Assembly: GCA_050183625.1 (NCBI GenBank)
Contig: JBFXBD010000022.1
Span: forward strand, 23,052-87,051
Direction: 5' to 3'
DNA: 64,000 bases
From: Gammaproteobacteria bacterium
Lineage (GTDB): Bacteria > Pseudomonadota > Gammaproteobacteria > JADZEE01
Positions 8,617-63,357 of the stretch are shown one piece after another. A program made the position numbers and the translations under genes. The notes beneath the pieces were generated by a model. The model ran no database searches, had not been told where the DNA came from, and worked only from the letters and a program-made list of their open reading frames with translations. Position 1 is the first letter of the stretch; every line of letters begins with the position of its first letter.

Positions 8617-8668
8617 GCCGGCGCGCACATCCGTGCTTGCGCGTTCCAACCCATGAGGAAATGACTGC

Positions 8669-21262: not shown

Positions 21263-22189
21263 ATGCACGCAACCCGAGTGGCGTCCCTGGTGTCGGGCGC
21301 ATTGTTGATGCAGGCCGCCGCGCTGGCTGGCGCGGCGCAGGAGGATCGGCCCGTGACGCTGCGATTCGCCGGCGCGGTCAACGGCAGCGCGTTCGAATGC
21401 GGCAGGCAGTATTCCGGCGTCGGCAGCGGTGGTTCCACGATCGAACCGGGTGACTTCCGCTTCTTCGTCTCGGCCGTCGAATTGATCGGCCGGGACGGCA
21501 AGGCGGTGCCGGTCGCGCTGGACCAGGACGGCGTCTGGCAGTATCGGGACGTGGCGCTGGTCGATCTCGAAAACGGCGCCGGCGCGTGCGGCAACGGCAC
21601 CGCGGCGGTCCACGCCGAGGTCAGCGGCCGGGTTCCGCGCGGCGAGTACACCGGCGTGCGCTTCACCCTGGGCGTGCCCTTCGAGTCGAACCACGGCGAC
21701 CCCACCCTCGCGCCATCCCCGCTCAACCTCACCGCGATGTTCTGGAACTGGCAGGGCGGGTACAAGTTCCTGAAGGTCGACCTGAACAGTGCGGTTCAAT
21801 CCGCGCATGCCATGGCCGGCGCTCATGGCGCCGACGCGGGCGCGCGCCATGCCGGCGGTCACGACGCCGCCAGCGCCCCGGGCTTCGCCCTGCACCTGGG
21901 CAGCACCCAGTGCGCCGCCCGGTCGCAGACCGAGAGCCCCTCCGCGTGCCGGAATCCGAACCGCGTGACCGTGACGTTCGAGGGTTTCGATCCGGACCGC
22001 AATACGATCGTCGCCGACATCGGCGCGGTGCTGGCCGGTACCGATGTCGAGCGCAACGCTCCGGACACGTCGCCCGGCTGCATGAGCTTTCCGAAGGACG
22101 CCGATTGCACCGCGGTGATGAATGCCCTCGGGCTGCCCTACGACGGCATCGCACCGGCCGGCGCGCAGAAGTTCTTCAGCATGAAGTAA
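21263..22189 (+). CDS. MbnP-like periplasmic partner protein (metallo-mystery pair)
   Basis: AAGGAGGA precedes the ATG. There is a signal peptide, several Cys residues and a Trp-rich core (WNWQGGYKFLKVD). It lies immediately upstream of a diheme peroxidase, as in MbnP/MbnH pairs. Confidence 0.5.
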   Translation: MHATRVASLVSGALLMQAAALAGAAQEDRPVTLRFAGAVNGSAFECGRQYSGVGSGGSTIEPGDFRFFVSAVELIGRDGKAVPVALDQDGVWQYRDVALVDLENGAGACGNGTAAVHAEVSGRVPRGEYTGVRFTLGVPFESNHGDPTLAPSPLNLTAMFWNWQGGYKFLKVDLNSAVQSAHAMAGAHGADAGARHAGGHDAASAPGFALHLGSTQCAARSQTESPSACRNPNRVTVTFEGFDPDRNTIVADIGAVLAGTDVERNAPDTSPGCMSFPKDADCTAVMNALGLPYDGIAPAGAQKFFSMK

Positions 22190-37999: not shown

Positions 38000-40900
38000 C
38001 TAGCCCGCCAGCACCACCACGCCCTTCCCGGCCTGCGCCGAGCGCGGCGGCCGCGGTGCCGCGCGGGTACGCAGGGCTTCCAGCAACTCCGCCTCGCGCG
38101 CCTTGGCGCGCACCCGGAAGCGTTCCTTCACGTGGCCGAAGCCGCGGATCTGCTCCGGTACGCGCGCGAGTTCCACGGCGGTGGCGTGGTTGCCCGCGTC
38201 CAGGGCCTGCAGCACTTCTTCCATGATGCGTTCGTAGTCGACGATGAGCTGGCGTTCCATGCGCCGCTCGGCGCTGCGGCCGAACGGATCCAGGCGCGTG
38301 CCGCGCAGGAATTTCAGGCGCGCCAGCCAGCCGAAGGCAGCCAGCATCCACGGGCCGTAGGTACGCTTGCGCGGCAGGCCGGTGAGCGGATCCGGCCTGG
38401 CGAGCAGCGATGGCGCCAGATGGAACACCAGCCGGTAGTCGCCCTCGAATTGCGCCGCCACGCGTTCGAGAAAGCCGGGTTGCGAGTACAGGCGCGCCAC
38501 CTCGTATTCGTCCTTGTAGCGCAGCAGGCGGAAGTAGTTGCGCGCGCAGGCTTCGGCGAGCGCGGTGGACGCGGGCACGACCTGGGCCTCGCGGCCGCGC
38601 ACCCGCTCCACCAGGGCCAGGTAGCGGCGTGCATAGGCGGCGTCCTGGTAGTCGCCGAGGTACCTGGCGCGGCGCGCGATGATTTCGTCGAGGCCGCCGG
38701 ACAGGCGGTGGCTCTCGGGCTGCGATCCCGCCGGCTCGGCCAGCCTGCGTACCGCGGCAGGATCCAGGGCGGCACGGCGGCCCCAACGGAAGGCCGCGCG
38801 GTTCATGTCCACCGCCGTGGCGTTCAACGCGATCGCGCGCAGGATGGCTTCGGTGGAGACCGGGATCAGGCCCTTCTGGCAGGCGTAGCCGAGCATGAAC
38901 AGGTTCGTGGCGATGGAATCGCCCGTGAGCGCCGTGGCCAGGCGCGTGGCGTCGATGAAGTCGGCCTTGTCCGCGCCCACGGCGTCCACGATCTGCCGCT
39001 TCATGGCTTCCAGCGGCACCTGCGGATCGCCGAACCGGGCCAGATCCCCGCTGCGCGCCTGGGCCGCCGAATTGCGGACGAAGTCGCTGGTGGCGGCCGG
39101 ATCGCCGTTCACCACCGCGCGCGAGACGCCCACCTGCAACTTCGCCAGGCTGTCGTCGGCGACCGCGACGACCATGTCGCAGCCCAGGAGCAGGTTGGCC
39201 TCGCCCGCGGCGATGCGGGCGGCGTGGATCTGCTCGGGCCGATCCGCGATGCGGATGTGCGACCAGACGGCACCGCCCTTCTGCGCCAGTCCCGCCATGT
39301 CCAGCACCGAGACGCCCTTGCCCTCGATGTGCGCCGCCATGCCCAGCAGCGCGCCGATGGTGACGACGCCGGTTCCGCCGACGCCCGTAACCAGGATGCC
39401 GTAGGGCTCGCCGGTGCCGGGGCGATCGGGCTCCGGCAGCGCGCCTGCATCCTCGCCGGCTCCCGCCGCGGCCGCGCTGCGCACGCGGCCGCCCTCCACC
39501 GTGACGAACGAAGGGCAGAATCCGTTCACGCAGGAGTAGTCCTTGTTGCAGGACGACTGATCGATGGCGCGCTTGATGCCGTACTCGGTCTGCACCGGCA
39601 CCACGGACACGCAGCCGGACCGATCGCTGCAATCGCCGCAGCCCTCGCAGACGTCTTCGTTGATGAACACCCGCAGCGCGGGATCGGGGAAGGTGCCGCG
39701 CTTGCGGCGCCGGCGCTTTTCCGCGGCACAGGTCTGGTCGTAGACGAGCGCGGAGACGCCCGGGTACTCGCGCAGTTCGCGCTGGATGGCGTCCAAGGCG
39801 TCGCGGTGGCGCAGCGGTACGCCGGGCGGCAGATCCGCCGCGCCGTAGCCGCGCGGGGTGCCGTCGGTGACGACGATGATGTTGCTCACGTTCTCGGCCT
39901 GGAGCTGGCGCACCAGCATGGGCACGGTCAGCGTGCCGTCCACCGGCTGGCCGCCGGTCATCGCGACCGCGTCGTTGTAGAGGATCTTGTAGGTAATTGG
40001 CGCCCCGGCCGCCACGGCGGCGCGGATGGCGAGGATGCCGGAATGGAAATACGTGCCGTCGCCCAGGTTGGCGAACACGTGCTTCGTCGCGGTGAACGGC
40101 GCCTGGCCGATCCACGGCGCGCCTTCGCCGCCCATCTGGCAGAAGGTGCGGGTGCTTTCCGCGTCGATCCAGGTCGCCATGTAATGGCAGCCGATGCCGG
40201 CCAGCGCGCGGCTGCCCTCGGGCACGCGGGTGGAGGTGTTGTGCGGGCAGCCGGAGCAGTAGTGCGGAATGCGGGCGATCGACACCGGCTTGCCCGCCAG
40301 CGCCTTCTCCTTGGCGTCCAGGAACGCCAGGCGCGCCTGGATGCGCTCTGAGGTGTGGAAGCGGGCGATGCGCGCGGCGATGGCGCGGGCGATCATGGCC
40401 GGTGTCAGTTCCGCCGCCGCCGGCAGCAGCCACCTGCCGTGCGGCAGCGCCCATTCCCCCTTCTCGTCGAACTTGCCGATCACGCGCGGCCGCACGTCCT
40501 CGCGCCAGTTGTAGAGTTCCTCCTTGAGCTGGTATTCGAGGAATTGGCGCTTTTCCTCCACCACCAGGATCTCTTCCAGCCCCTGGGCGAAGCGGCGCAC
40601 GCCTTCGGATTCCAGCGGCCAGGTCATGCCCACCTTGTAGAGGCGGATGCCGATCCCTGCCGCCAGCGGCTCGTCGATGCCCAGGTCCTCCAGGGCCTGG
40701 CGCACGTCCGGATAGGACTTGCCCGAGGTGATGATGCCCAGCCGCGGGCGGGGGCTGTCGATGACGACCCGGTTCAGGCCGTTGGCCCGGCAGTAGGCGA
40801 GCGCGGCGTAGAGCTTGTGGTGCAGCAGCCGTTCCTCCTGCGCCAGCGGCGGATCCGGCCAGCGCAGGTTCAGGCCGTCCGGCGGGAGTTCGATGTCGGA

Positions 40901-41572
40901 GGGGATCACGATGTGCACGCGGTCGGGATCCACGCTCACCGACGCGGAGGTTTCCACCGTGTCAGCCACCGCCTTGAAGGCCACCCAGCACCCGGAGTAG
41001 CGCGACAGCGCCCAGCCGTGCAGGCCGAAGTCCAGGTACTCCTGCACGCCGGACGGCGCCAGCACCGGCATCATCACGGCCTTGAAGATGTGCTCGGTCT
41101 GGTGCGGCATGGTGGACGACTTGGCGCCGTGGTCGTCGCCCGCCACCACCAGCACGCCGCCATGGCGCGATGTGCCTGCGGCGTTGGCGTGTCGGAACAC
41201 GTCTCCGCACCGATCCACGCCCGGCCCCTTGCCGTACCAAAGTGCGAACACGCCGGCGCAGGTGGCGGCCGGATCGAGATTGACCTGCTGGCTGCCCCAG
41301 ATGGCGGTGGCGGCGAGATCCTCGTTCAACCCGGCGTGAAAGCGCACGCGGTGCGCCTCCAGGTGCGGACGCGCGGCACGAAAGGCCAGATCCACGCCGC
41401 CCAGCGGTGAACCGCGATAGCCGCAGACGAAGCCGGCGGTATCGAGCCCGGCCGCCAGATCGCGCCGGCGTTGCATCATCGGCAATCGCACCAGGGCCTG
41501 GATCCCGGTGAGATACACGCGCCCGCGTTCGAGCGTGTACTTGTCGTCGAGGCTGACGCTCGCCAGTGTCAT
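38000..41572 (-). CDS. Indolepyruvate:ferredoxin oxidoreductase family protein (fused alpha/beta, 1190 aa)
   Basis: The N-terminus (YLTGIQALVRLPMMQ) is IOR-type. The TPP-binding region is GDGTYFHSGILAIR. There are [4Fe-4S] Cys clusters (CEGCGDC...CNKDYSC) and a C-terminal gamma-like domain. Confidence 0.85.
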   Translation of the reverse strand: MTLASVSLDDKYTLERGRVYLTGIQALVRLPMMQRRRDLAAGLDTAGFVCGYRGSPLGGVDLAFRAARPHLEAHRVRFHAGLNEDLAATAIWGSQQVNLDPAATCAGVFALWYGKGPGVDRCGDVFRHANAAGTSRHGGVLVVAGDDHGAKSSTMPHQTEHIFKAVMMPVLAPSGVQEYLDFGLHGWALSRYSGCWVAFKAVADTVETSASVSVDPDRVHIVIPSDIELPPDGLNLRWPDPPLAQEERLLHHKLYAALAYCRANGLNRVVIDSPRPRLGIITSGKSYPDVRQALEDLGIDEPLAAGIGIRLYKVGMTWPLESEGVRRFAQGLEEILVVEEKRQFLEYQLKEELYNWREDVRPRVIGKFDEKGEWALPHGRWLLPAAAELTPAMIARAIAARIARFHTSERIQARLAFLDAKEKALAGKPVSIARIPHYCSGCPHNTSTRVPEGSRALAGIGCHYMATWIDAESTRTFCQMGGEGAPWIGQAPFTATKHVFANLGDGTYFHSGILAIRAAVAAGAPITYKILYNDAVAMTGGQPVDGTLTVPMLVRQLQAENVSNIIVVTDGTPRGYGAADLPPGVPLRHRDALDAIQRELREYPGVSALVYDQTCAAEKRRRRKRGTFPDPALRVFINEDVCEGCGDCSDRSGCVSVVPVQTEYGIKRAIDQSSCNKDYSCVNGFCPSFVTVEGGRVRSAAAAGAGEDAGALPEPDRPGTGEPYGILVTGVGGTGVVTIGALLGMAAHIEGKGVSVLDMAGLAQKGGAVWSHIRIADRPEQIHAARIAAGEANLLLGCDMVVAVADDSLAKLQVGVSRAVVNGDPAATSDFVRNSAAQARSGDLARFGDPQVPLEAMKRQIVDAVGADKADFIDATRLATALTGDSIATNLFMLGYACQKGLIPVSTEAILRAIALNATAVDMNRAAFRWGRRAALDPAAVRRLAEPAGSQPESHRLSGGLDEIIARRARYLGDYQDAAYARRYLALVERVRGREAQVVPASTALAEACARNYFRLLRYKDEYEVARLYSQPGFLERVAAQFEGDYRLVFHLAPSLLARPDPLTGLPRKRTYGPWMLAAFGWLARLKFLRGTRLDPFGRSAERRMERQLIVDYERIMEEVLQALDAGNHATAVELARVPEQIRGFGHVKERFRVRAKAREAELLEALRTRAAPRPPRSAQAGKGVVVLAG

Positions 41573-41724
41573 CGTTGCGCTCCGGTGGCCCCGTGGGGCG
41601 GTGGCCTGGCGGCGCAGTCACGGTAGCTGGCGCTTTGCGCCGGGCAGGCCACGCGTGCCGGCAACACCGTGCACGCGCTCTCAGTCTAGCGCAGTCGAAC
41701 CTCGGGGATTCCACGAGCGGCGCA

Positions 41725-51838: not shown

Positions 51839-52327
51839 GTGGCAAAGTTGAAAGTCAACGGTCGGATCGTCGATGTCGAGGTCGAGCCGGACACCCCCCT
51901 GCTCTGGGTGCTGCGCGAGCAGCTCGGCCTGACCGGTACCAAGTACGGCTGCGGTATCGCCCAGTGCGGTTCCTGCACCGTATTGATCGGTGGCACTGCG
52001 ATCCGAAGCTGCGTCATGCCGGTCTCCGCGGTCGCCGCGGATCAGGACGTCGTCACGATCGAAGGGCTCTCGCCGCAGGGCAACCATCCGGTGCAACAGG
52101 CCTGGGCGGAGCTGGACGTACCGCAGTGCGGTTATTGCCAGGCCGGAATGATCATGGCGGCAACCGCGCTGCTCAACGCCAATCGCTCGCCCACGGACGA
52201 CGACATCGACGCCCAGATCACGAACATCTGCCGCTGCGGCACCTACAACCGCGTGCGCGCGGCCATCAAGCTGGCGGCGCGCAGCGGCGTGGCAGCCGCG
52301 GTTTCAGCAAGCGAGGAACGTTCATGA
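51839..52327 (+). CDS. iorA: [2Fe-2S]-binding small subunit of a molybdenum hydroxylase (IorA-like)
   Basis: [11 protein letters not shown] is the plant-type ferredoxin cluster motif. [11 protein letters not shown]...CRCGTY is the second cluster motif. CAGGAGAA precedes the GTG at 51839. Confidence 0.8.
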
Positions 52328-54510
52328 GCGGCATCGATGCATCGGCGCGGGTTTCGCGTCGCCAGTTTCTCGCCGGCGCGGCGGGCACCGGCCTGTTGTT
52401 GGGCTTTCATTTCCCGATGCGTGCCGCGGCCGAGGCCGGAAGCGCGGCCGCCGCGCTTCCCGAGATCAACGCCTGGGTCCAGATCGAATCCGACGAGCGC
52501 GTGATCATCCGCATCGCGCGCTCGGAGATGGGGCAAGGCACCCTGACCGGCCTGGCGCAGCTCGTGGCCGAGGAGCTGGAATGCGATTGGTCGCGCGTGA
52601 CCACGGAATATCCCACGCCCGGGGCGAACCTGGCGCGCAATCGCGTCTGGGGCGACTTCATGACCGGCGGCAGTCGCGGCATCCGGGCCAGCCAGGAGTA
52701 CGTGCGCAAGGGCGGCGCAGCGGCGCGCATGATGCTGGTACAGGCCGCCGCGAACCAGTTCGGCGTGCCGGCATCCGAGTGCCGCGTGGAGCGCGGCGTG
52801 ATTACCCACCCGGCGTCGAATCGTCGCACGACGTACGGCCAGGTGGCTGCCGCCGCCGCGAAGCTCGAACCGCCGGCCGACGTGCCACTGAAGGATCCCG
52901 GCGCGTGGACCGTGGCGGGCCGGTCGGTCAAGCGCCTGGACACGCTCGACAAGCTCACGGGCAAGCAGGTGTTCGGCGTCGATCTGAAACTGCCCGGGAT
53001 GTTGAATGCAGCAATCAAGGACTGCCCGGTGTTCGGCGGAACCTTGAAGAGCTTCGACCCGGCGGCGGTGCAGAAGATGCCCGGCGTGCAGAAGGTCGTG
53101 CGCGTCGGCGATTCCGCGGTGGCCGTGGTCGCGGATACCTGGTGGCGCGCCAAGACCGCGCTCGACGCGTTGCCGATCGTCTGGGATGAGGGGCCGAATG
53201 CGTCGATATCCAGCGCCGACATCGATGCGCTGGTTGCGAGCGGCCTGGATGCGGAGCAGGCGGTCGTCGGCAATCAGGCGGGCGACGTGAAATCGGCCAT
53301 CCGCACCGCGGCGAAAACCGTCGAAGCGGTGTACAGCTTTCCGTTCCAGAATCACGCCACCATGGAACCCATGACGGCAACCGCGCGCTGGACACCCGAG
53401 CGGTGCGAGGTCTGGTGCCCGACCCAGAACGGCGAGGCCGCGCTCGCCGTCGCCATCGAAGCGTCGGGCCTGCGCGCCGAGCAGTGCGACGTCCACAAAT
53501 TTCATCTCGGCGGAGGGTTCGGCCGGCGCGGCCAGTCGGACTACGTACGCCAGGCGATAGCGATCGCCAGGCAGGTCCCCGGCACGCCGGTCAAGCTCAT
53601 CTGGACCCGGCAGGAGGACATGCTGCACGGCTATTTTCACCCCACCACCCAATGCAGGCTGACCGGCGCGCTCGACGCGCACGGCAACCTGACCGGCCTG
53701 CACATGCGCATATCAGGGCAGTCGATCCTTGCGGCGCTGATGCCGCAGAACGTGCAGAACGGGCGTGATCCCGTCGTCTTCCAAGGGCTGCTGCCCGAGG
53801 GTTCGGAGGGGCGGCTCGGCTACGACATTGCCAATCTGCTGATCGATCACGCCATGCGCAACCCGCACATCCGCCCGGGGTTCTGGCGCGGCGTGAACCA
53901 CAACCAGAACGCAATCTACCTGGAGTGCTTCATCGACGAGTGCGCCCACGCGGCGGGACGCGATCCCCTGGAGTTCCGGCGCGCGCTGATGGCAAATCAC
54001 CCCAGGCACCTGGCGGCGCTGAATGCCGCCGCGGAGCGCGCCGGCTGGGGCAAGCCGGCGGCGCCGGGGGTGCACCGCGGCCTGGCGCAGATCATGGGGT
54101 TCGGTTCCTACGTCGCGGCCGTAGCCGAAGTCTCGGTGAGCGCGGCGGGCAAGCTCAGGATCCATCGCATCGTCGCGGCGACCGACACCGGCGTCGTCGT
54201 CAACCCCCAGCAGGTCGAAGCGCAGGTGGAAGGCTCGTTCGTCTACGGCCTGTCCGCCGTCCTGTTCGGTGCATGCACCGTGGCCAATGGACGGATCGTG
54301 GAGACCAACTTCGATACCTACCCCGTGATGCGCATGGACTCCATGCCCGCCGTGGAAACGGAGCTCCTGGCCTCGGGCGGGTTCTGGGGCGGCGTCGGCG
54401 AGCCGACCATCGCGGTCGCCGGGCCTGCCGTGCTGAACGCGATCTTCGCGGCGACAGGCAAGCGGATCCGTCGCCTGCCGTTGAAGGACCAGGACATCCG
54501 TCCAGCCTGA
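52324..54510 (+). CDS. iorB: Molybdopterin-binding large subunit of xanthine-oxidase-family hydroxylase (IorB/membrane aldehyde dehydrogenase-like), TAT-exported
   Basis: [11 protein letters not shown] is a twin-arginine signal. It is 728 aa with aldehyde oxidase / xanthine dehydrogenase MPT-domain motifs. The start overlaps the iorA stop (ATGA). Confidence 0.8.
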
Positions 54511-54518
54511 GCACTGCC

Positions 54519-54815
54519 ATGCGCGACACGCTGGTACTGGTTGCGACCATGCTGTCGCCGCTCGCGGCGGCAGCGGGGGGCACCGGTGATCGCGCGCCGC
54601 CGGGTGCTGAGTCCTGCTACGGCTGTCATCGCTCTTCGGGCGCGGACCCGGGGCCCGTGCCCTCGCTCGCGGGATTGTCCGCGGCGTCGATTGCCGAGGC
54701 GATGCGGGCGTTTCGCGCGGGCGAGCGCACACCGACCGTGATGGATCGCATTGCCAGGGGATACTCGGCAGAAGAAGTCGAGCGCCTCGCGACCTGGCTG
54801 GCATCGCAACGCTAG
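54519..54815 (+). CDS. Small monoheme c-type cytochrome (FccA/SoxE-like)
   Basis: It is 98 aa with a CYGCH heme motif after a signal-like N-terminus. It starts 8 nt after the iorB stop, and a flavoprotein gene lies 7 nt downstream. Confidence 0.65.
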   Translation: MRDTLVLVATMLSPLAAAAGGTGDRAPPGAESCYGCHRSSGADPGPVPSLAGLSAASIAEAMRAFRAGERTPTVMDRIARGYSAEEVERLATWLASQR

Positions 54816-54822
54816 CGGGACC

Positions 54823-56100
54823 GTGAACGCAGGAGCAACGCCCTTTTCACGCCGCGCCTTCCTGGCTGGCGCGGGAACGTTCGCGTCTCTGGCGATCTTA
54901 CGGCGCGCGCGTGCGGACCGAACCGCGCGGGTGGTCGTCGTGGGCGGAGGATTCGCTGGCGCCAGTGCCGCACGCCGCCTGGCGCTACGGGGCTTGCGGG
55001 TCCATCTCGTCGAAGAGGACGGCAACTACACCGCTTGCCCATTCAGCAACAGCGTCGTGGCCGGCGTGCGTGATCCCGAGCGGCAACTTTTCGGCTATCG
55101 GGCGGTCGAGAAAGCTGGCGTCAGCCGTGTCCGGCTCCGGGCGGTCGGAGTCGATGCCGATCGACGGCGCGTCACCCTGAGCGACGGTTCGACACTGGAC
55201 TACGACCGCCTGATCCTGGCTCCGGGGATCGAAGTACGCCTGGATGCGCTGCCCGGCTACGACGCGGCGGCCTCCCGGCGAATGCCGCACGCGTGGCAGG
55301 CGGGCGCGCAGACGCTGCTGTTGCGGCGCCAGCTCGAAGCGATGAACGACGGCGGCACCGTCGTCATCGTGGTGCCACCGAATCCGTATCGGTGCCCGCC
55401 GGGACCATACGAGCGGGCAAGCCTGATCGCGCATTACCTCGAGACGCGCAAGCCGCGCTCGAAGCTGATCGTGCTCGATGCGAAGGACACGTTTTCCAAG
55501 CAGCCGCTGTTCGTGGCGGCCTGGAAGGACCTGTATCCGGGGATCATCGAGTACGTGCCCCTGTCGGACGGTGGGAAGGTGATTTCCGTCGATGCCAAGT
55601 CGCTCAGCGTCGAGGCCGAGTTCGGACGGCACCGTGCTGATGTGGCGAACGTGATTGCGCCGCAACGCGCGGCGCGCATCGCCGATCAGGCCGGCGTGGC
55701 GGATCGAAGCGGTTGGTGTCCGATCGATCCGATTACGTTCGAGTCGCGGCTGATCCCGAAGATCCACGTGATCGGCGATGCGGCGATCGGCGGCGCAATG
55801 CCCAAGTCGGCGTTCGTCGCCAACCAGCAGGCGATTGCCTGCGCGGCCGCGGTCGCGGACCTGATTGCCGGCGTCGTGCCGGCCACGCCGAAGCTCGTGA
55901 ACACCTGCTACAGCCTGGTCGCGCCCGACTACGGCATATCGATTGCCGGCGTGTTTGCACCCAACGCGGACGGCGTGCTGGCCGAAGTGCCCGGTTCGGG
56001 GGGACTCAGCCCGATCGATGCGCCACGCGCGGTGCGCGCGCTGGAAGCGCGTTATGCCCAGGCGTGGTTCGATACGATCACGCGCGATGTCTTTGGTTGA
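54823..56100 (+). CDS. fccB: Flavocytochrome c sulfide dehydrogenase flavoprotein subunit (FccB/SoxF-like)
   Basis: SRRAFLAGAGTFAS is a TAT signal. VVVVGGGFAGASAARRLA is an FAD motif, with FccB-type C-terminal region. A GTG start at 54823 is assumed, because the longer ATG start would overlap the cytochrome gene. Confidence 0.7.
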   Translation: MNAGATPFSRRAFLAGAGTFASLAILRRARADRTARVVVVGGGFAGASAARRLALRGLRVHLVEEDGNYTACPFSNSVVAGVRDPERQLFGYRAVEKAGVSRVRLRAVGVDADRRRVTLSDGSTLDYDRLILAPGIEVRLDALPGYDAAASRRMPHAWQAGAQTLLLRRQLEAMNDGGTVVIVVPPNPYRCPPGPYERASLIAHYLETRKPRSKLIVLDAKDTFSKQPLFVAAWKDLYPGIIEYVPLSDGGKVISVDAKSLSVEAEFGRHRADVANVIAPQRAARIADQAGVADRSGWCPIDPITFESRLIPKIHVIGDAAIGGAMPKSAFVANQQAIACAAAVADLIAGVVPATPKLVNTCYSLVAPDYGISIAGVFAPNADGVLAEVPGSGGLSPIDAPRAVRALEARYAQAWFDTITRDVFG

Positions 56101-56555
56101 TGCGCGCCTGGATGCCGATGGCCATGCTCGTGCTCTCGACGGCGCAGGCCGAGGAAGGCGAACGCGCCGGTACGTCGCTCACCGGTCGTCCGGGTGATCC
56201 CGCCCGAGGCCGGGAGATCGTCGTCAGCCGTGAGCACGGCCTGTGCCTGCTCTGCCATTCCGGACCGTTTCCGCAGGAGCGCTTCCAGGGCGACCTGGCG
56301 ACGGACCTGAGCGGTGCGGGCACACGGTGGACCGCGAGCGAACTCCGCCTGCGACTGATGGACCCGCAATCGTTGGACCCCGCCTCGATCATGCCGGCGT
56401 ACTATCGAACCGAGGGACTGACCCGCGTCGGCGCGGGCTGGCGCGGGCGTACCGTTCTCAGCGCCGGGCAGATCGAAGACGTCGTCGCTTTCCTGATGAC
56501 GTTGCGCGATCCGAACGCGTCGGAACCGGGCGCGAACGGGGAGGGTGGGCGATGA
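56100..56555 (+). CDS. soxX: SoxX-type monoheme cytochrome c
   Basis: CLLCH is a heme motif, and LRLRLMDPQSLDPASIMPAYYRTEGLTRV matches the SoxX C-terminal signature. The ATG overlaps the fccB stop. Confidence 0.7.
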   Translation: MRAWMPMAMLVLSTAQAEEGERAGTSLTGRPGDPARGREIVVSREHGLCLLCHSGPFPQERFQGDLATDLSGAGTRWTASELRLRLMDPQSLDPASIMPAYYRTEGLTRVGAGWRGRTVLSAGQIEDVVAFLMTLRDPNASEPGANGEGGR

Positions 56556-57028
56556 AGCCCCGGACGTCCAGGCGCCGTCTGACGCGGCGGGAGCTGATTG
56601 CACGTGGGAACGGCGTGGCGCTCGCACTGCTGCTGAGCTCTGCGAAAGCCGATCCGGAGGGCCTCGCGGCGGCGATTGCCGAGTTCACCGGCGGGCGTGC
56701 GCCGAGTCCGCAGCGCGTGACACTCGACATCCCCCCGCTCGTCGAGAACGGTAATTCGGTACCCGCGACCGTCACGGTGGAAAGCCCGATGTCGCAGGCC
56801 GACTACGTACGCCGCATCGCCCTGTTCGCGCAGAAGAACCCACAACCCCTGATTGCCGTGTTCACGGTCGGTCCGCGGTCAGGCCGTGCGAAAGTGTCCA
56901 TCCGCTTTCGCCTGCGTGGCTCGCAGCAAGTGGTGGCAGTGGCGGAGCTCTCCGACGGCAGCTACTGTTCGGCGAGCGCCGAAGTGCTGGTCACGCTCGC
57001 CGCCTGCGTCGAGAGCGAACCGGCCTGA
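56552..57028 (+). CDS. SoxY-homologous sulfur-carrier protein with a non-canonical AACVE C-terminal arm
   Basis: There is a TAT-like N-terminus and a full SoxY core (EFTGG...VENGNSVP...SPMSQADYVRRIALFA...VVAVAELSDGS). It ends ...VLVTLAACVESEPA rather than ...VTIGGCGG. GGGGAGGG lies upstream, and the start overlaps the soxX stop. Confidence 0.75.
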   Translation: MKPRTSRRRLTRRELIARGNGVALALLLSSAKADPEGLAAAIAEFTGGRAPSPQRVTLDIPPLVENGNSVPATVTVESPMSQADYVRRIALFAQKNPQPLIAVFTVGPRSGRAKVSIRFRLRGSQQVVAVAELSDGSYCSASAEVLVTLAACVESEPA

Positions 57029-57045
57029 ATGCGGGGAACTCCGGG

Positions 57046-57366
57046 GTGAACCGCGCGTTGATCAATCTGCCGCGGACCGCCAGGCGCGGCGACATCGTCG
57101 AAATCCGGGTGCTCATCGCGCATCCGATGGAATCCGGATTTCGCGCGGGGGCCGATGGCGCACTGCTGCCGCGCAATATCATCACGCGTTTCACCTGCCG
57201 CTATCGGGGGGTCGAGGTGTTCAGCGCCGAGTTCTATCCCTCGGTCGCGGCCAATCCGTTCCTTTCGTTTCCGCTGATTGCCGAGGAAAGCGGCGAGCTG
57301 TTGTTCACGTGGACGGGCGACCACGGCTTCGAGCAGTCCGAGACGGCCACGTTGGCGGTCGAATGA
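57046..57366 (+). CDS. soxZ: SoxZ sulfur-carrier complex subunit
   Basis: RGDIVEIRVLIAHPMESGFR and FTWTGDHGFEQSETATLAVE are typical SoxZ motifs. It is 106 aa. Confidence 0.8.
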   Translation: MNRALINLPRTARRGDIVEIRVLIAHPMESGFRAGADGALLPRNIITRFTCRYRGVEVFSAEFYPSVAANPFLSFPLIAEESGELLFTWTGDHGFEQSETATLAVE

Positions 57367-57410
57367 GAGGTGGGGTTTTCGAGGGCGCGCCGATACGGCC
57401 TGGGCCGTCG

Positions 57411-58244
57411 ATGCGACGGATCCGAGTGTTCGTGGCGTCTGCCGAGGGCAGGAGATGCCTGATTGCGTCGTTGGTTCTGCTCGCCTCGATGCTCGGCTGC
57501 GTACGAGCGGTGACGCCCGCGAGCGGGAGCGCGAAGGCGATCCCCACCAGCGAACGTCGCTCGGGATTCGAGTTCATGCGGGCCGAGACCCAGTCGCTGC
57601 AGCGCGACGACACGGCCAACCCCGGCATGCTCTGGGTTGCCGACGGCGCGGCCCTGTTCTCTGCGCCGGCAGGGACGAGCAACCGTGCTTGCGCGGATTG
57701 CCACCCGGATCGCCTGGCCGGGGTCGCGGCGCGGTATCCCGCGTACGATCCCGGGAAGAAGGCGGCCATCGATCTCGCGCAACGCATCAATACCTGCCGC
57801 ACGCGGCAGCAACGGGCACGGCCGCTGGCACCGGAGAGCCGGGATCTGCTGGCGCTCAACGCCTTCGTCGCGCATCAGTCGCGCGGCCTGCCAATCCAGG
57901 ACCCGGCGCGCGATCCGCGCCTCGCTCGGGCGATCGTCAATGGGCGCACGCTCTACATGCAGCGGATCGGACAACTCAACCTGTCCTGTGCTCAATGTCA
58001 CGACCGGCACTGGGGCCGCAGGCTCGCCGGCAATGTCATTCCGCAGGCGCACCCGACCGGCTATCCGCTGTATCGCCTGGAGTGGCAGGGGCTGGGTTCG
58101 CTGCAGCGCCGCTTGCGCAACTGCATGACGGGCGTACGTGCCGAGCCCTACGACTACGGCTCGCAGGAAATGATCGATCTCGAAGTGTTCCTGGCGTCCC
58201 GCGCCGCCGGGCTTGCGATTGAAACACCCGCCGTGCGCCCATGA
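57411..58244 (+). CDS. soxA: SoxA diheme cytochrome c
   Basis: CADCH and CAQCH are heme motifs, and RLRNCMTGVRAEPYDYGSQEMIDLEVFLA matches the SoxA C-terminal signature. Confidence 0.8.
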   Translation: MRRIRVFVASAEGRRCLIASLVLLASMLGCVRAVTPASGSAKAIPTSERRSGFEFMRAETQSLQRDDTANPGMLWVADGAALFSAPAGTSNRACADCHPDRLAGVAARYPAYDPGKKAAIDLAQRINTCRTRQQRARPLAPESRDLLALNAFVAHQSRGLPIQDPARDPRLARAIVNGRTLYMQRIGQLNLSCAQCHDRHWGRRLAGNVIPQAHPTGYPLYRLEWQGLGSLQRRLRNCMTGVRAEPYDYGSQEMIDLEVFLASRAAGLAIETPAVRP

Positions 58245-58290: not shown

Positions 58291-59499
58291 ATGGTGACAG
58301 GCACGCAGGAGCTGCGCCGGCACGCGCGCCCGCTTGTCGCCGCCACGCTCGGCATGGGCTTCGGGCTGCAGCTTGCACTTTACGCCGCGGGCCTGTTCGG
58401 ACCGGCGCTGATCGCGGAGTTCGGCTGGACGAAGTCGCAGTATGCCCTGCCCGGCGTACTCGCCTTCGTCACGGTGTTCGTGTTTCCGTTGGCCGGCCGG
58501 CTGACCGATCGGCTCGGTGTGCGGCGGGTCGCGGCCATGGGGATCGCGGGTGTCGCGGCTGTTACGGTCGGCATGGGCCTGATGACCGGGCCGTACTGGC
58601 AGTTCCTCGCGCTCAGTCTCGGCAAGACCGTCTTCGGCACGATGGCCACGACGGCGGTGTTCACGCGCCTGGTCGCAGAGCGCTTCGACGCTGCGCGTGG
58701 CGTCGCGCTGGCCGTAGTGATCAGCGGTCCGCCCCTGATCGCCGCGGGGGCGATCCCCCTGCTCGATGGAATCATCGCCGACCAGGGCTGGCGCACGGCC
58801 TATTTCGTATTGGGCGGCATGATCCTGGCTGGCGGCGGTCTGGCCCTGCTGCTCGCGCCGCGAACCGGCGTCAACCACTTCCGAGGCGCGGCGCGGCCGG
58901 ACAGCTTCCGCGCCGATTTCCGGCGGATTGCGCGGCGCAGGGTGTTCTGGGTGCTTCTGGCCGCGATGTTCCTGGTCAACATGCCCCAGGTGCTTGGCGG
59001 TGCGCAACTCAAGCTCATGGCGATGGACAGCGGCGCCACCTCCACCATCGCCGTGGCGATGATGTCGACGTACGCAATCGGCGTGGTGTGCGGCCGCCTC
59101 GCTTGCGGCCTTGCCCTGGACCGGCTGCCCGCGCATCTGGTCGCCTTCGGATCATTGATGCTGCCGGCTGCGGGCTTCCTGGCGCTTTATTCACCCTTCG
59201 ACCCGGCATGGATCCTGATCGGTGGCATGGCGATGATCGGTCTCGCGCAGGGCTCCGAGGGCGACATCGCAGCCTATATGGTGGCGCGCCACTTCGATAT
59301 CGCGAACTACAGCTTCGTCCTGTCGATGGTGTCCTCCGCGCTCACCGCCGGCGCGGCCACCGGCTCGCTCGTGCTGACCGCCATGCTGCACGTGACCGAC
59401 GATTTCACGCCCTTCGTCCTGCTGGCCGCCATCGTGTCTTTCCTGGGCGCTTCGACCTTCCTTCTGATCGGGCGCCCATCGCGTACGGAGGCGACTTGA
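58291..59499 (+). CDS. MFS transporter
   Basis: There are 12 predicted TM helices with an MFS-like repeat architecture. It is paralogous to the next gene. GGAG precedes the ATG at 58291. Confidence 0.7.
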   Translation: MVTGTQELRRHARPLVAATLGMGFGLQLALYAAGLFGPALIAEFGWTKSQYALPGVLAFVTVFVFPLAGRLTDRLGVRRVAAMGIAGVAAVTVGMGLMTGPYWQFLALSLGKTVFGTMATTAVFTRLVAERFDAARGVALAVVISGPPLIAAGAIPLLDGIIADQGWRTAYFVLGGMILAGGGLALLLAPRTGVNHFRGAARPDSFRADFRRIARRRVFWVLLAAMFLVNMPQVLGGAQLKLMAMDSGATSTIAVAMMSTYAIGVVCGRLACGLALDRLPAHLVAFGSLMLPAAGFLALYSPFDPAWILIGGMAMIGLAQGSEGDIAAYMVARHFDIANYSFVLSMVSSALTAGAATGSLVLTAMLHVTDDFTPFVLLAAIVSFLGASTFLLIGRPSRTEAT

Positions 59500-59592
59500 A
59501 CGTTTGCTTGGCTTCGGCCACGCGGTTTCTTCGGATCCCTGGTGACGGACCGTGCCTTGGCGTTCGAACCTCCGCACCAAGTCGCCCGGCCG

Positions 59593-60837
59593 ATGACCGG
59601 TCGGGCGTACGCGGTGATGGTCGTGACCTATAGCGAGGAATTGCGCAGGCATGTACGCCCGCTGATTGCGGCGTGCATCGGCCTGGGCTTTGGGGGAGCG
59701 CTCAGCGTCTACACACAGGGTCTTTTCGGCCCGTCCCTGATTGCCGAATTCGGCTGGAGCAAGTCGCAGTTCGCACTGGTGGGCGTCACGAGCTTCGCCT
59801 TCGTGTTCATCATTCCGATCGCCGGGCGGCTGACGGATCGCTACGGGGTGCGACGGGTGGCTACGGTGGCCACGCTCGGGCACCCGGCCGTCACCTTCGC
59901 CCTGGGACTGATGAATGGAAACTTCACGCTGTTCCTCGCGCTCATGATGGCCAAGACGTGCCTGGGCGCGATGGCGACCACGACCATCTACACGCGCCTG
60001 GTCGCCGAACGGTTCACCGTGGCGCGCGGCTTCGCGCTGGCCGTGGTGACCAGTGGCCCGCCGCTGGTCGGCGCCATCGCCGCGCCGATCCTTGCCGGCG
60101 TCATCCAGGCGCACGGCTGGCGAGCGGGCTTCTTCACCCTCGCCGGCGCGATCCTCGCCGGCGGCGTGACGGCCCTGCTGCCGGTGCCGAAACGGGAGCA
60201 ACCGGCAAATCCGGGCAGGCGCCGGGGCAACGCCTTCCTGGTCGATTTCCTGGCGCTTGCCCGCGCCCGCGTGTTCTGGCTGCTCCTGGGCGGGATGTTC
60301 CTGTGCAACCTGCCCCAGGCCCTGGCGGGCACGCAGCTCATGCTCATGGCGCTGGACAGCGGTGCAACCCACGAAATCGCCGTCGCGATGATGTCCAGCT
60401 ACGCCCTGGGGGTCATCACCGGCCGCTTCGCCTGCGGCCTGGCGCTGGATCGCGCGCCTGCCAATCGGGTGGCGTTCGTGTCGTTGATCCTGCCCGCGCT
60501 CGGCTTCGCCGCGCTGTATTCGCCCTATGACGCCGGCTGGTTCCTCGTCGCGGGGATGGCGCTGGTGGGCCTGGCGCAAGGCGCCGAGGGAGATATCGCC
60601 GCCTATGTCGTCTCGCGCCACTTCGAGCTGGCGCACTACAGCTTCGTGCTCGGATTCGTGTCCGCATCCCTGGCAGCGGCGGCGGCGACCGGCGCCCTGC
60701 TGCTCAGCCTGATGTTGCGGGTGGAGGAGAGCTACATGCCGTTCCTGCTGGTCTGCGCCGTCGCCACCTTCGGTGGTGCCGCGACGCTGCTCATGATCGG
60801 CCGGGGGACACCGAAGCCCGTCGTCATCTCGCATTGA
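59593..60837 (+). CDS. MFS transporter (tandem paralog)
   Basis: It is about 45-50% identical to the upstream MFS gene (ELRRH...GLFGP.LIAEFGW.KSQ). The start codon is uncertain (GTG 59542, ATG 59593 or ATG 59617). Confidence 0.65.
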   Translation: MTGRAYAVMVVTYSEELRRHVRPLIAACIGLGFGGALSVYTQGLFGPSLIAEFGWSKSQFALVGVTSFAFVFIIPIAGRLTDRYGVRRVATVATLGHPAVTFALGLMNGNFTLFLALMMAKTCLGAMATTTIYTRLVAERFTVARGFALAVVTSGPPLVGAIAAPILAGVIQAHGWRAGFFTLAGAILAGGVTALLPVPKREQPANPGRRRGNAFLVDFLALARARVFWLLLGGMFLCNLPQALAGTQLMLMALDSGATHEIAVAMMSSYALGVITGRFACGLALDRAPANRVAFVSLILPALGFAALYSPYDAGWFLVAGMALVGLAQGAEGDIAAYVVSRHFELAHYSFVLGFVSASLAAAAATGALLLSLMLRVEESYMPFLLVCAVATFGGAATLLMIGRGTPKPVVISH

Positions 60838-60937: not shown

Positions 60938-61212
60938 CGAACCGCCCCTTCGTCGTCACGAGGCCGCACCCGGGCAGCCCCGGCCGATTATGGCCATGAA
61001 CGATCGTCGTCGCGAGCGCAGCGAAGCGACCCAAGCAGCCTTGATGCCACCGGCACCGCGTGGATTGCTTCGTCGCTTCGCTCCTCGCAATGACGGGGTG
61101 CGGTTCATGGATAGCGCAGCGAAGCAATCCATGCGGCGCCAATGACGGTAACGCCGCATGGATTGCCGCGGCCGCTACGCGGGCTTGCGATGACGGGGCC
61201 GGTTCATGGATG
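60938..61212. repeat. Composite palindromic REP/MITE-like element, copy 5 (longest, four or more units)
   Basis: It shares the ccggccgatt(a/g)tggccatgaacgatcgtcgtcgcgagcgcagcgaagcgaccca unit with copy 2 and the gcgtggattgcttcgtcgcttcgctcctcgcaatgacg unit with copies 1 and 4. Its last unit (ggttcatgg) supplies the stop codon of the adjacent gene. Confidence 0.7.
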
Positions 61213-63357
61213 GCGCCGTGACAGCGCGAGGCCGAGGCAGGGCACGCCAAGCAGCAACAACGTTCCCGGCAACGGCACGACCGTCGGGCCGGCGGCCGTG
61301 ATGAACGCGAAGTCTCCGTTGCCCAGGTGCTGCCCGGACAAGGCGTTGTACAGGCCCGGATCGCCCGCGGTCGCGTTGAATATCGTGCCGGTGTCAGGCA
61401 CCAGCGTCGCCCAGACTGCGAACGGATCCAGTCCAGACAGGACCTGCGGTCCACCGCCTCCGAAGAGATCACTGCTCGCGTAGCCACCGCTCAGGAGCGG
61501 CTGGAGAAACCCAGTATCCGTCTCCGAAGGATCAACGCCCAGCCGCGGGTTCAGGAGTATTTCGCCGGTCAGGTTGATGAACAGCAGCATGTCGAAGCCG
61601 GTGTAGTCGTCACTGTAGCCGGCGGGCCCGAGGTCCATGCGGTACAGGACAAAGCCGGCATCGTCCGGCGCCGCAGCGCGTACCGCGTCGAAATCCGGCA
61701 CCAGTGCATCGATCCCCGAGAGCAGGCCATAGAGTTCCGCGCCGCCCGTCAGATCCGCGATAAGAGGCGTGCTGATGCCGCCGGCGATGAACGGATTGTC
61801 GCCACGCGGACCGGCGAACGAACTCGTGCTGGCCCCCGCAACCGCGCCCGGACCGCCACCGGCGGCGTTGCTGCCGAGGATCAGCCTGCCATTCGCGCCG
61901 GTGCTGGCGCCGCCACCGCCATTGGCGTTGACCGTCGCACTGCCCGCGCTGATCACCGTCCCGTACAACTTGACCGTGCCCCCGGCGCCGCCGCTGCCGA
62001 CGCCACCGTTGCCGCCGACCGCGCCGGTGCCGCCCTTGCCACCGGTGCCGCCACTGCCGCCGTCGCCCCCGTCGCCGGCATCCGGGCAGGCGAAGCATCC
62101 GACTCCGCCGGCGCTGCCCGAAGTACCGAGCCCGCCCCCCTGCCCCTGGCTGAAGATCGTGAGCCCGTCGTTGAGTCCGGCATTGCTGCTGGTGCCGCTG
62201 GCACCGCGCGCATCCAGCACGCTCCCGGCACCCACATTGACCCGTCCCTGCGCCATGATCTCGAATGCACCGCCGCCGCCGCCGCCGGCACCGCCATCGC
62301 CGCCATCGCCGCCGTGCCCCCCCGGACCGCCGGCGCCGCCGTTGCCACCCGTGCCACCGCTGCCACCGGTCAATCCACGCGCTCCGCCGCCTCCACCGCC
62401 ACCGCCGGCGCCGCCGCCGCCCTGGCCGCCGGCGCCACCCGTGCCGCCGCTTGCACCACCACCGCCACCCCCCCCGCCGCCACCGGAAATCGTCAGCCCC
62501 GTGCCGGCATTGCTCCCCGCAGCGCCGTTCGTGCCGTTGTTCCCCGTCAGTCCGGCATTCCCGGCGGCACCGAAGGTGCCGTTGCCGCCATCCTGGCCAT
62601 CGCCACCGCTACCGAAATAGTCGGTCGCCGAGGCACCGGGGTAGCCAGAGGAACCACCATTGGCGCTCAGCGTGACGCTCAGGGACGCCGTGGAACGACC
62701 CAGACCGCGATTGCCTCCGGCACCACCCGCCCCGCCGTTGATGCCGGAACCACCTGCCACTCCCAGGTGACCGGCACTGCTGTTGCCACCTCGCGAACCG
62801 GAGTTTCCGTTAGCCCCGTTGGGCGATGGTCCATAGAACCAGCCCGTGCACGAGGGAAGTGGGAAAGCGAATTCGCATTCCGTAAAGCCTCCCTGCCCGC
62901 CGACGGAACCGATGCCGCCGGTGCCACCGGCACCACCCGCCCCACCTGGACCGCCCGCGCCACCACCGCCTCCATTGCCGCCGCCCGCGCCCGCTGTGCG
63001 GCCGCTCGCGGCGAAGTTGAATGTCACGCCAGTGCCGATATTGACGTTGTTGCCGGCCAGCAGCGACGCCCCGCGCGCGCCGGTGCCGACCACCGTATCG
63101 TTGGCGTTGATGTTGAGATCGCCGGCGAAGCGGAACTGCATGATGCTGCCGCCGGATTCGATGCTGGTGAAGAACCGGGTTCCGTTGAAGAACCCGCCGC
63201 TGCCGACGCCATTGATCGTGCCGGCGCCGGTATCGATCGTGATGAGCGCGGCGTGCGCGCTGCCCGCCGAACAGAGCCCCGACACCAGTGCCGAGACGAG
63301 CAACATCCGGGTACGTGCCGGCGTTTCCGGGTGCGTCGTTATTGTTCTGGTTTCCAT
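61204..63357 (-). CDS. Glycine-rich secreted protein with PEP-CTERM sorting tail (717 aa)
   Basis: There is a signal peptide (MLLVSALVSGLCSAGSAHA), long GGxGG/GAGG low-complexity tracts, and the C-terminus VVPLPGTLLLLGVPCLGLALSRRHP. GAGAGGG lies upstream of the ATG at 63357. Confidence 0.65.
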   Translation of the reverse strand: METRTITTHPETPARTRMLLVSALVSGLCSAGSAHAALITIDTGAGTINGVGSGGFFNGTRFFTSIESGGSIMQFRFAGDLNINANDTVVGTGARGASLLAGNNVNIGTGVTFNFAASGRTAGAGGGNGGGGGAGGPGGAGGAGGTGGIGSVGGQGGFTECEFAFPLPSCTGWFYGPSPNGANGNSGSRGGNSSAGHLGVAGGSGINGGAGGAGGNRGLGRSTASLSVTLSANGGSSGYPGASATDYFGSGGDGQDGGNGTFGAAGNAGLTGNNGTNGAAGSNAGTGLTISGGGGGGGGGGASGGTGGAGGQGGGGAGGGGGGGGARGLTGGSGGTGGNGGAGGPGGHGGDGGDGGAGGGGGGAFEIMAQGRVNVGAGSVLDARGASGTSSNAGLNDGLTIFSQGQGGGLGTSGSAGGVGCFACPDAGDGGDGGSGGTGGKGGTGAVGGNGGVGSGGAGGTVKLYGTVISAGSATVNANGGGGASTGANGRLILGSNAAGGGPGAVAGASTSSFAGPRGDNPFIAGGISTPLIADLTGGAELYGLLSGIDALVPDFDAVRAAAPDDAGFVLYRMDLGPAGYSDDYTGFDMLLFINLTGEILLNPRLGVDPSETDTGFLQPLLSGGYASSDLFGGGGPQVLSGLDPFAVWATLVPDTGTIFNATAGDPGLYNALSGQHLGNGDFAFITAAGPTVVPLPGTLLLLGVPCLGLALSRRHP

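Follow-up and report, generated by a model that had tools for sequence, protein, structure and literature searches.

In the canonical Sox pathway, sulfur carried by SoxY is loaded by SoxAX, hydrolysed by SoxB and oxidised by SoxCD (PMC5336275). A SoxY-related protein, here called SoxY', is encoded together with SoxZ, SoxX, SoxA and a molybdenum (Mo) enzyme in an eight-gene operon in a 64,000-nucleotide (64-kb) stretch of contig JBFXBD010000022.1 from a Gammaproteobacteria bacterium, hereafter the window. A cluster of this kind is the second sox cluster of Starkeya novella, soxX2Y2Z2A2F2 (Snov_1982-1977), described in 2013, which lies with a xanthine oxidase (XO)-family Mo enzyme (Snov_1975/1976) and is without SoxB and SoxCD (PMC3797975). 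The SoxAX and SoxYZ proteins of this second cluster were undetected in proteomes from thiosulfate, methanol and sugar cultures and its transcripts were very low, and its authors considered that it either has no role under the conditions tested or has a role under others (PMC3797975). In Bradyrhizobium diazoefficiens, soxY1 is essential for thiosulfate oxidation and a second homologue, soxY2, is dispensable (PMC5748708). Thus, unlike canonical sox clusters, those related to the SoxY' operon are not tied to growth on thiosulfate (PMC3797975, PMC5748708). A 2024 survey of SoxY diversity dropped all sequences without the string 'GGC' and therefore excluded the family to which SoxY' belongs, whose C-terminal arm reads AACxE (PMC11237559).

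Two further systems are comparable in part. The fused SoxYZ family (PP_2677 in the ped cluster of Pseudomonas putida) is, like SoxY'Z, a periplasmic SoxY/SoxZ derivative of unassigned role tied genomically to a periplasmic dehydrogenase and not to SoxB/SoxCD (PMC12997753). It is, however, a single polypeptide occurring with pyrroloquinoline quinone (PQQ) alcohol dehydrogenases, a rhodanese and a SoxH-like hydrolase, whereas SoxY' and SoxZ are encoded by separate genes and have a Mo enzyme as partner; with the fused-SoxYZ model (cutoff 140 bits), SoxY' scored 63 bits and SoxZ 37.8 bits, both below the threshold. On the Mo-enzyme side, the IorAB/AldFGH-type dehydrogenases (Gluconobacter, 8gy3) share the plan of the window enzyme, namely a molybdopterin-binding (Moco) subunit with a twin-arginine (Tat) signal, a 2Fe-2S subunit and a c-type cytochrome acceptor. 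The window-type enzyme differs in lying in an operon with sox genes in most genomes, and in having a cytochrome that is small or absent in place of a trihaem membrane-bound subunit.

SoxY' is already known as a sequence feature: its family has a curated model, an identical protein (P0001) is named in GenBank, with the NCBI label 'MAG: SoxY-related AACIE arm protein [Gammaproteobacteria bacterium]', and a cluster of this kind was drawn in the 2013 paper. The protein scored 181 bits on the NCBIfam model TIGR04487, 'SoxY-related AACIE arm protein' (SoxY_para_1; cutoff 172, E = 1.1e-53, positions 2-146 of 146), but only 101.7 bits on the true-SoxY model TIGR04488, below the cutoff of 125. The first-pass annotation of this DNA, which had named such a family and suggested alignment to both models, was therefore right about its existence and its membership, and its description of the family as functionally uncharacterised also held, as no functional study of AACIE-arm proteins was found in the searchable literature and no relevant paper there mentions the string 'AACIE'; on SoxY paralogues and second sox clusters, PMC3797975 and PMC5748708 were the only relevant papers to emerge. 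All 41 aligned relatives of SoxY' likewise matched TIGR04487 at 1e-40 or better. SoxY' shares with this family the AAC[IVLT]E arm with its cysteine, the SoxY fold and an adjacent SoxZ, but it diverges from the other members. Even the closest of them share only 56-63% identity with it, its score lies 9 bits over the cutoff and about 50 bits under those of the best members, and it carries the source label Gammaproteobacteria in a family that is mostly alphaproteobacterial.

The SoxY' protein starts with MKPRTSRRRLTRRELI and ends with VLVTLAACVESEPA followed by the stop codon, the translated C-terminal stretch reading AEVLVTLAACVESEPA before the stop. It consists of a Tat-type N-terminus (RRRLTRRELI), a SoxY beta-sandwich at about residues 40-148, and a flexible C-terminal arm (LAAC152VESEPA), in which A150-A151-C152-V153-E154 is followed by SEPA. 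Its Pfam SoxY match has an E-value of 1.2e-32, and Cys152 aligns with the carrier cysteine of Paracoccus SoxY (2ox5_Y, VTIGGC; phmmer E = 2e-16). An AlphaFold2 (AF2) model built on 41 relatives had a mean predicted local distance difference test (pLDDT) score of 82.5, with values above 88 in the beta-sandwich; over the last ten residues it falls to about 58, and no secondary structure is predicted there. With this model, the best Foldseek matches were the SoxY chains of 2oxh (2oxh_D at the top), 2ox5 and 2oxg, with a target-normalised template modelling (TM) score of 0.85. The resemblance to SoxY seen with Pfam, TIGR04487 and AF2/Foldseek far exceeds chance. These results bear out the first-pass reading of the open reading frame (ORF) as a SoxY homologue with a non-canonical arm, whose coordinates it had given exactly. 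A chance ORF was ruled out by the hidden Markov model, fold and homologue evidence.

Compared with canonical SoxY (TIGR04488; Paracoccus pantotrophus 2ox5/2oxg; Thermus SoxB-SoxYZ 4uwq), SoxY' has the same beta-sandwich fold and the same placement of the carrier cysteine after the last strand (VT[IL]xxC), and both types are exported by the Tat route, have SoxZ as partner and are encoded alongside SoxX and SoxA. They differ in the arm, which is AACVESEPA and not GGCGG, in the score on the true-SoxY model, and in the absence of SoxB and SoxCD near SoxY'. Six residues, two of them Glu, follow the arm cysteine in SoxY', as against two residues in GGCGG, so that the earlier description of the arm as bulkier, acidic and four residues longer was accurate. 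SoxY' is almost certainly a Tat-exported periplasmic protein of the TIGR04487 family with a SoxY fold, which pairs with the neighbouring SoxZ and bears its cysteine on a flexible tail.

The altered arm does not result from a frameshift or an assembly error, a possibility that the first-pass annotation had raised. Translation in three frames at the stop revealed no glycine-rich terminus in the other two frames, and a six-frame scan of all 64 kb found no terminus of the type GGCGG, GGCG or GCGG; since no such terminus occurs in any frame of the window, this artefact is excluded. The same scan found the AAC[IVL]E motif only once, at SoxY'. In the alignment of 41 sequences, Cys152 and Ala151 are invariant and Glu154, at position +2, is present in at least 90%. 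Family tails have the form [LI][AP]AC[TIVL][ED] plus 1-4 residues (e.g. LAACIEG, LPACVEN and LAACIEETP), and the commonest in sequenced genomes is LAACTEEVI. The tail of SoxY' is therefore unremarkable within its own family, although at the long end of the range: with six residues after the cysteine it is the longest among the top 120 matches, and its SEPA lies past the end of the TIGR04487 model, which stops at E154. SoxY' also contains a second cysteine, Cys141 (DGSYCSAS, codon 56972-56974), where the last beta-strand begins and some 11 residues ahead of Cys152; this position is Trp or Arg in 118 of the 120 best homologues, and a Cys there is shared only by P0002.

A homologue search with SoxY' returned 2,858 clusters (90% identity) at E <= 1e-5, and one with a Bradyrhizobium member of the family returned at least 7,944 at E <= 1e-30. 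Most of the latter are of soil-metagenome origin, and as many as 1,082 sequences belong to a single cluster. The protein had been treated in the first-pass annotation as a single-gene oddity; this view is not tenable for a family with thousands of such clusters, mostly of soil Alphaproteobacteria. The AACxE family is among the commoner sox-like genes of these bacteria (Bradyrhizobium, Microvirga, Methylobacterium, Inquilinus, Belnapia and others).

SoxY' is the sixth of eight tightly packed genes at 51839-58244 (Table 1). ATGA overlaps occur at the IorA/IorB and SoxX/SoxY' junctions and TGATG at FccB/SoxX, and the other gaps are of 7-44 nt, including that before SoxZ, which starts 18 nt downstream of SoxY'. 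The first-pass annotation had called SoxZ, SoxX and SoxA canonical-looking, and this part of its context reading stood: all three pass their NCBIfam equivalog cutoffs, and SoxA, of the dihaem type I, matches Rhodovulum SoxA (1h31_A, E = 5.6e-45) with both CXXCH motifs and both cysteine axial ligands (INTCRT and RLRNCMTG) aligned. What it had overlooked was that the operon also encodes a Mo enzyme. The small subunit of this enzyme matched NCBIfam models for gamma/iron-sulfur subunits of Mo hydroxylases, with E-values between 1e-42 and 1e-30 but without reaching any equivalog cutoff, and the best solved relative of the Moco subunit is the large subunit of the membrane-bound aldehyde dehydrogenase of Gluconobacter (8gy3_C, E = 4e-83, residues 5-724). 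The flavoprotein (FccB) of the flavocytochrome c sulfide dehydrogenase (FCSD) matches 5n1t_A at E = 7.5e-131 and retains all three cysteine motifs (YTACPFSN, YRCPPGPYE and SGWCPID), which comprise the FAD-linking cysteine and both active-site cysteines; the small cytochrome c encoded next to it is probably its FccA-like partner.

Table 1. The eight genes of the SoxY' operon, with positions in the window
Gene	Product	Position	Strand	Features
1	2Fe-2S small subunit of XO-family Mo enzyme (IorA/AldG-like)	51839-52327	+	likely GTG start at 51839 after GGAGA; no signal peptide
2	Molybdopterin-binding large (Moco) subunit (IorB/AldF-like)	52324-54510	+	Tat signal; catalytic G-E-P Glu conserved
3	Small monohaem cytochrome c (CYGCH)	54519-54815	+	Pfam Cytochrom_C 9e-05; one CXXCH
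4	FCSD flavoprotein (FccB/SoxF-like)	54823-56100	+	Tat signal SRRAFLAGAG; Pfam FCSD_central 7.5e-48, FCSD-flav_bind 6.9e-28
5	SoxX-type monohaem cytochrome c (CLLCH)	56100-56555	+	TIGR04485 66.7 bits (cutoff 61)
6	SoxY' (SoxY-related AACIE-arm carrier)	56552-57028	+	158 aa; ATG at 56552, TGA ends at 57028
7	SoxZ	57046-57366	+	GTG start, no signal peptide; TIGR04490 83.4 bits (cutoff 76); Pfam SoxZ 2.6e-26
8	SoxA, dihaem cytochrome c	57411-58244	+	CADCH and CAQCH; TIGR04484 224 bits (cutoff 110)

As judged from its published description, the second cluster of Starkeya has the same gene content as this operon: both encode SoxX, SoxY, SoxZ, SoxA, a flavocytochrome c and the two subunits of an XO-family Mo enzyme, and both lack SoxB and SoxCD. 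Judging from the sequences of related Xanthobacter and Bradyrhizobium loci (L073, L047 and others), SoxY2 of Starkeya presumably carries an AACxE arm as well.

To examine how constant the operon is, one genome per species was scanned, giving 80 loci with relatives of SoxY', onto which the eight window proteins were mapped by tblastn; the 68 loci in which 5 kb or more of sequence precedes SoxY' were informative for the upstream genes. SoxZ lies directly downstream of SoxY' in 80 of the 80 loci, each from a different species. The gene for the 2Fe-2S subunit is present upstream in 68 of the 68 informative loci and that for the Moco subunit in 66, at the same position and with 62-73% identity, being fragmented in the other two. 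The remaining partners are less constant, with SoxX in 67, SoxA in 64, FccB in 61 and the small cytochrome c in 31 of these loci. The small cytochrome c is optional in this operon family, and the gap at its place in Bradyrhizobium-type loci contains no ORF with CXXCH. The operon of the window, with its Mo enzyme, SoxX/SoxA and FCSD, fits the arrangement of the informative loci, and copies annotated by PGAP on megaplasmids of Neorhizobium and Methylobacterium have the same eight products between unrelated flanks. Since all-against-all clustering of flanking ORFs found no further gene conserved beyond lineage-level synteny, the operon is self-contained. Departures from the common arrangement include one locus ordered Mo enzyme, SoxY'Z, SoxX and SoxA, and a reduced locus (L023) with a GntR regulator, the 2Fe-2S and Moco subunits, SoxY' and SoxZ only. 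When SoxB was used as a tblastn query against the window and 90 loci, the sole match was the query's own source locus (L091), with none in the window or the remaining 89. Scans of 30 window ORFs outside the six sox/FCSD genes with Pfam and NCBIfam turned up no other sox gene. The AACxE carrier is thus encoded with a periplasmic Mo hydroxylase and, in the stretches examined, never with SoxB, a concrete and testable pairing which replaces the vague notion of 'duplicate sox genes'.

The linkage is not confined to strict AACxE arms. On plasmid p1318-3 of Roseomonas marmotae (L085, 9551-9991), a SoxY with the arm variant VVLGACVETG is encoded in an operon for 2Fe-2S subunit, Moco subunit, SoxX, SoxY, SoxZ, SoxA, cytochrome c and FccB; as the composition is the same, the association with the Mo enzyme reaches beyond the AACxE type. 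PGAP labels this protein 'thiosulfate oxidation carrier protein SoxY', which is probably misleading.

One explanation of such a cluster is that it is a decaying duplicate without function, as was tentatively suggested for Starkeya. The very low expression of the Starkeya cluster under all conditions tested (PMC3797975) and the lack of a thiosulfate phenotype in the Bradyrhizobium soxY2 mutant (PMC5748708) would agree with it. Yet none of the eight operon ORFs in the window is disrupted and their starts and stops are coupled, the cysteine is invariant and the arm conserved, and the same operon occurs in at least 68 genomes of different species and in thousands of soil metagenome clusters. In addition, the median pairwise dN/dS (ratio of nonsynonymous to synonymous substitution rates) was 0.27-0.44, well below 1, for the seven operon genes tested, i.e. 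all except the small cytochrome c, although these are rough values (NG86 method, pairs with dS up to 1, GC-rich genes). We therefore strongly disfavour decay, which could hardly account for this pattern.

Alternatively, the operon may provide a back-up for thiosulfate oxidation, in which the second SoxXA and SoxY'Z form the thiosulfonate adduct and canonical SoxB and SoxCD encoded elsewhere finish the cycle. SoxX, SoxZ and SoxA do pass the equivalog cutoffs for thiosulfate-oxidation proteins, and both Bradyrhizobium and Starkeya carry a complete sox cluster plus a second one (PMC5748708, PMC3797975). However, thiosulfate oxidation in B. diazoefficiens persists when soxY2 is mutated but depends on soxY1 (PMC5748708), the second cluster of Starkeya is not induced by thiosulfate, its SoxAX and SoxYZ being undetectable (PMC3797975), the arm lacks all four glycines, SoxY' falls below the true-SoxY cutoff, and no SoxB is present within 10 kb in any locus. 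A back-up role thus seems distinctly improbable.

Another explanation is that of a sulfide-handling module: FCSD would oxidise sulfide, SoxY'Z would take up the sulfane sulfur as persulfide or polysulfide, SoxXA would extend or couple it, and the Mo enzyme would be co-transcribed but biochemically unrelated. In accordance with this, FccB is a close and catalytically intact homologue of characterised sulfide dehydrogenases and is retained in most operons (61/68), and in Rhizobium gallicum a SoxY variant with the tail TNGCR adjoins SoxZ, cytochrome c and FccB without SoxXA, an arrangement which suggests a general partnership between FCSD and SoxYZ. On the other hand, the 7 of 68 operons that lack FccB keep the Mo enzyme, one operon has only the Mo enzyme and SoxY'Z, and the Mo genes are the sole partners found in 68 of 68; such linkage across Alpha-, Beta- and Gammaproteobacteria would be unusual for unrelated functions. 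We regard a sulfide module of this kind as rather unlikely.

The reading we prefer, tentatively and with a little less than even confidence, is a second periplasmic pathway with SoxY'Z as its covalent carrier. The Cys arm would be loaded by SoxXA and FCSD of the same operon, its acidic, glycine-free sequence would insulate it from SoxB and SoxCD, and the carrier would be functionally coupled to the Mo enzyme. The pathway would be a self-contained one for sulfur, separate from the canonical Sox cycle, in which i) SoxXA of the operon would oxidatively join a sulfur anion (thiosulfate or a sulfane/persulfide species) to Cys152, ii) FCSD would supply sulfane sulfur derived from sulfide to SoxY'Z, iii) the altered arm, with Ala-Ala for Gly-Gly before the cysteine and a branched residue and Glu after it, might act as a specificity tag, directing the carrier away from SoxB/SoxCD and toward the partners encoded in the operon, iv) the periplasmic XO-family Mo enzyme, the most constant partner, would take the genomic place that SoxB/SoxCD have in canonical clusters, and v) electrons would leave via c-type cytochromes. 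Family membership, the fold, the invariant cysteine, the intact catalytic motifs of SoxA and FccB, the make-up of the operon and the constant association with the Mo enzyme are established, whereas the cargo and the physiological substrate, like the insulation from SoxB/SoxCD and any action of the Mo enzyme on the loaded arm, are what we infer. Because the loading enzymes (SoxXA and FCSD) look canonical, SoxB and SoxCD are absent and the Mo enzyme is in the operon in every informative locus, the altered set of partners points more to a change in the processor of the cargo than to a change in the cargo itself. The first-pass suggestion that the arm reprograms what the cysteine is loaded with is not supported.

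In a more specific form of this proposal, SoxY'Z would be a dedicated tethered-substrate carrier whose AACxE arm takes a Cys-bound load, either a sulfur species or carbon attached through sulfur, into the active site of the Mo enzyme; in a variant, it would provide the sulfane sulfur that maintains Mo=S in the periplasm. This form is possible but doubtful. If it is true, there would be a widespread oxidation route in soil bacteria independent of SoxB/SoxCD, and the enzyme would have no known precedent among Mo hydroxylases in using a substrate bound to a carrier protein. A carrier that does serve the Mo enzyme would open a new branch of sulfur chemistry in the periplasm and show a new way in which substrates are presented to enzymes of the xanthine oxidase family.

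Several points weigh against a carrier coupled to the Mo enzyme. XO-family chemistry is the hydroxylation of carbon at C-H bonds with hydride transfer to Mo=S, with which a sulfane-sulfur substrate is not readily reconciled. No hydrolase equivalent to SoxB is encoded in the operon, so that the release of a product is unexplained, and we know of no inducing condition or cysteine adduct for SoxY' operons. Furthermore, the dispensability of soxY2 in B. diazoefficiens favours a separate pathway only if this gene is of the AACxE type. It probably is, because at least 20 Bradyrhizobium genomes carry the AACxE operon, but the homologue search with the Bradyrhizobium SoxY' returned nearly only soil-metagenome clusters, and the link to soxY2 itself is indirect.

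Stand-alone orthologues of the Mo enzyme count in the same direction. A tblastn search of plasmids with the Moco subunit revealed orthologues that are accompanied by a cytochrome c but have no adjacent sox genes, in Sinorhizobium/Rhizobium, Methylosinus trichosporium OB3b and Agrobacterium, and their identity to the window protein (61-68%) is in the same range as that of the sox-linked enzymes. In a neighbour-joining tree rooted with an outgroup of 42% identity, the Sinorhizobium/Rhizobium and Methylosinus sequences fell inside the sox-linked clade and that of Agrobacterium at its base. Among the 268 columns that are at least 93% conserved in the sox-linked enzymes, only one, a conservative Ile/Leu exchange, is altered in more than one of the three stand-alone lineages, and the Mo enzyme thus bears no sequence signature for a protein-tethered substrate. 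The proposal that the Mo enzyme is dedicated to SoxY'Z accordingly failed this reciprocal test, with the stand-alone orthologues nested or basal and no residues specific to the sox-linked forms, which lowers our confidence in the tethered-substrate model. From these comparisons, the Mo enzyme can evidently work without an adjacent SoxY'Z, and an obligate tethered-substrate role of SoxY'Z is unproven, as close orthologues of the enzyme occur without sox genes.

These orthologues lead to a further explanation, in which the Mo enzyme acts, as its relatives do, on an aldehyde or N-heterocycle that is free in solution, and SoxY'Z, SoxXA and FCSD form an accessory module, either for upkeep of Mo=S sulfuration in the periplasm or as a shared cytochrome outlet for electrons. 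It would account for the stand-alone enzymes keeping essentially all residues conserved in the sox-linked ones, two of the three lineages nesting in the sox-linked clade, and for about half of the sox-linked operons having no cytochrome c besides SoxX and SoxA. The maturation genes XdhC and MocA are also distributed in a way that would suit it: they lie beside the stand-alone versions of Methylosinus and Agrobacterium and were found within 10 kb on either side in 0 of 82 sox-linked loci. The complementarity is weak, as the Sinorhizobium loci, which also lack an adjacent XdhC, break the pattern and three stand-alone lineages were sampled, but on its account the variant with sulfur supply to Mo=S is kept alive. 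Against an accessory module, five conserved genes would be a heavy cost for the upkeep of a cofactor, sulfuration of the XdhC type and insertion of the cofactor are cytoplasmic steps that precede Tat export, and no precedent is known. We consider it unlikely, and retain the carrier of a second periplasmic pathway as the preferred reading.

On plasmid pOB3b1 of M. trichosporium OB3b (L084), the stand-alone Mo enzyme adjoins an arylsulfatase, a 650-aa multihaem cytochrome, XdhC and a MocA-type nucleotidyltransferase, and on pQ15_94_2 of Agrobacterium tumefaciens (L086) it lies beside XdhC and a MocA-type nucleotidyltransferase. On pRGM101b of R. gallicum (L090, about 7890-8340, with downstream genes to 10318), the SoxY variant, ending in SVATNGCR, is followed by SoxZ, a small cytochrome c and FccB and has no SoxX or SoxA; it is located about 900 kb from the stand-alone Mo-enzyme orthologue on the same replicon, so that at least one host of a stand-alone enzyme does have a SoxYZ variant, which qualifies the outcome of the reciprocal test. 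Similar SoxY matches, of about 40% identity, were obtained from about 32 Sinorhizobium plasmids.

Regarding regulation and origin of the window operon, none of the Rfam families reached or approached its gathering score, a sigma-70-like promoter was not found, and the flanks contain no regulator gene that is conserved. The GC content of the operon (0.681) is close to that of the rest of the window (0.693) and hence uninformative on horizontal transfer. Immediately after soxA lie two tandem paralogous major facilitator superfamily (MFS) transporter genes (58291-59499 and 59542-60837, + strand), with the L-lactate MFS transporter SfMCT as best NCBIfam match, well below cutoff; the pair is not conserved beside the operon in the 80 other loci.

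The window contains other genes worth noting. The gene at 61204-63357 (- strand) encodes a protein of 716 aa that is rich in glycine, including long runs of the GGxGG type, and matches no Pfam domain; its C-terminal tail (VPLPG, a hydrophobic stretch and SRRHP) is a weak PEP-CTERM match (18 bits, cutoff 85). At 19250-20884 (+ strand), a 544-aa ORF without a Pfam or NCBIfam match precedes a gene at 21119-22189 (+ strand) for an MbnP-family copper-binding protein (TIGR04052, 283.6 bits). The ORF at 8657-10177 (+ strand) encodes a fusion of a glucose/sorbosone dehydrogenase (GSDH) domain with a cytochrome c domain at the C-terminus, another periplasmic dehydrogenase with a built-in haem acceptor. 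Finally, the gene at 38000-41617 (- strand) encodes a single polypeptide of 1,204 aa that belongs to the indolepyruvate:ferredoxin oxidoreductase family (NF009588, 1,752 bits), with DUF6537 at its C-terminus.

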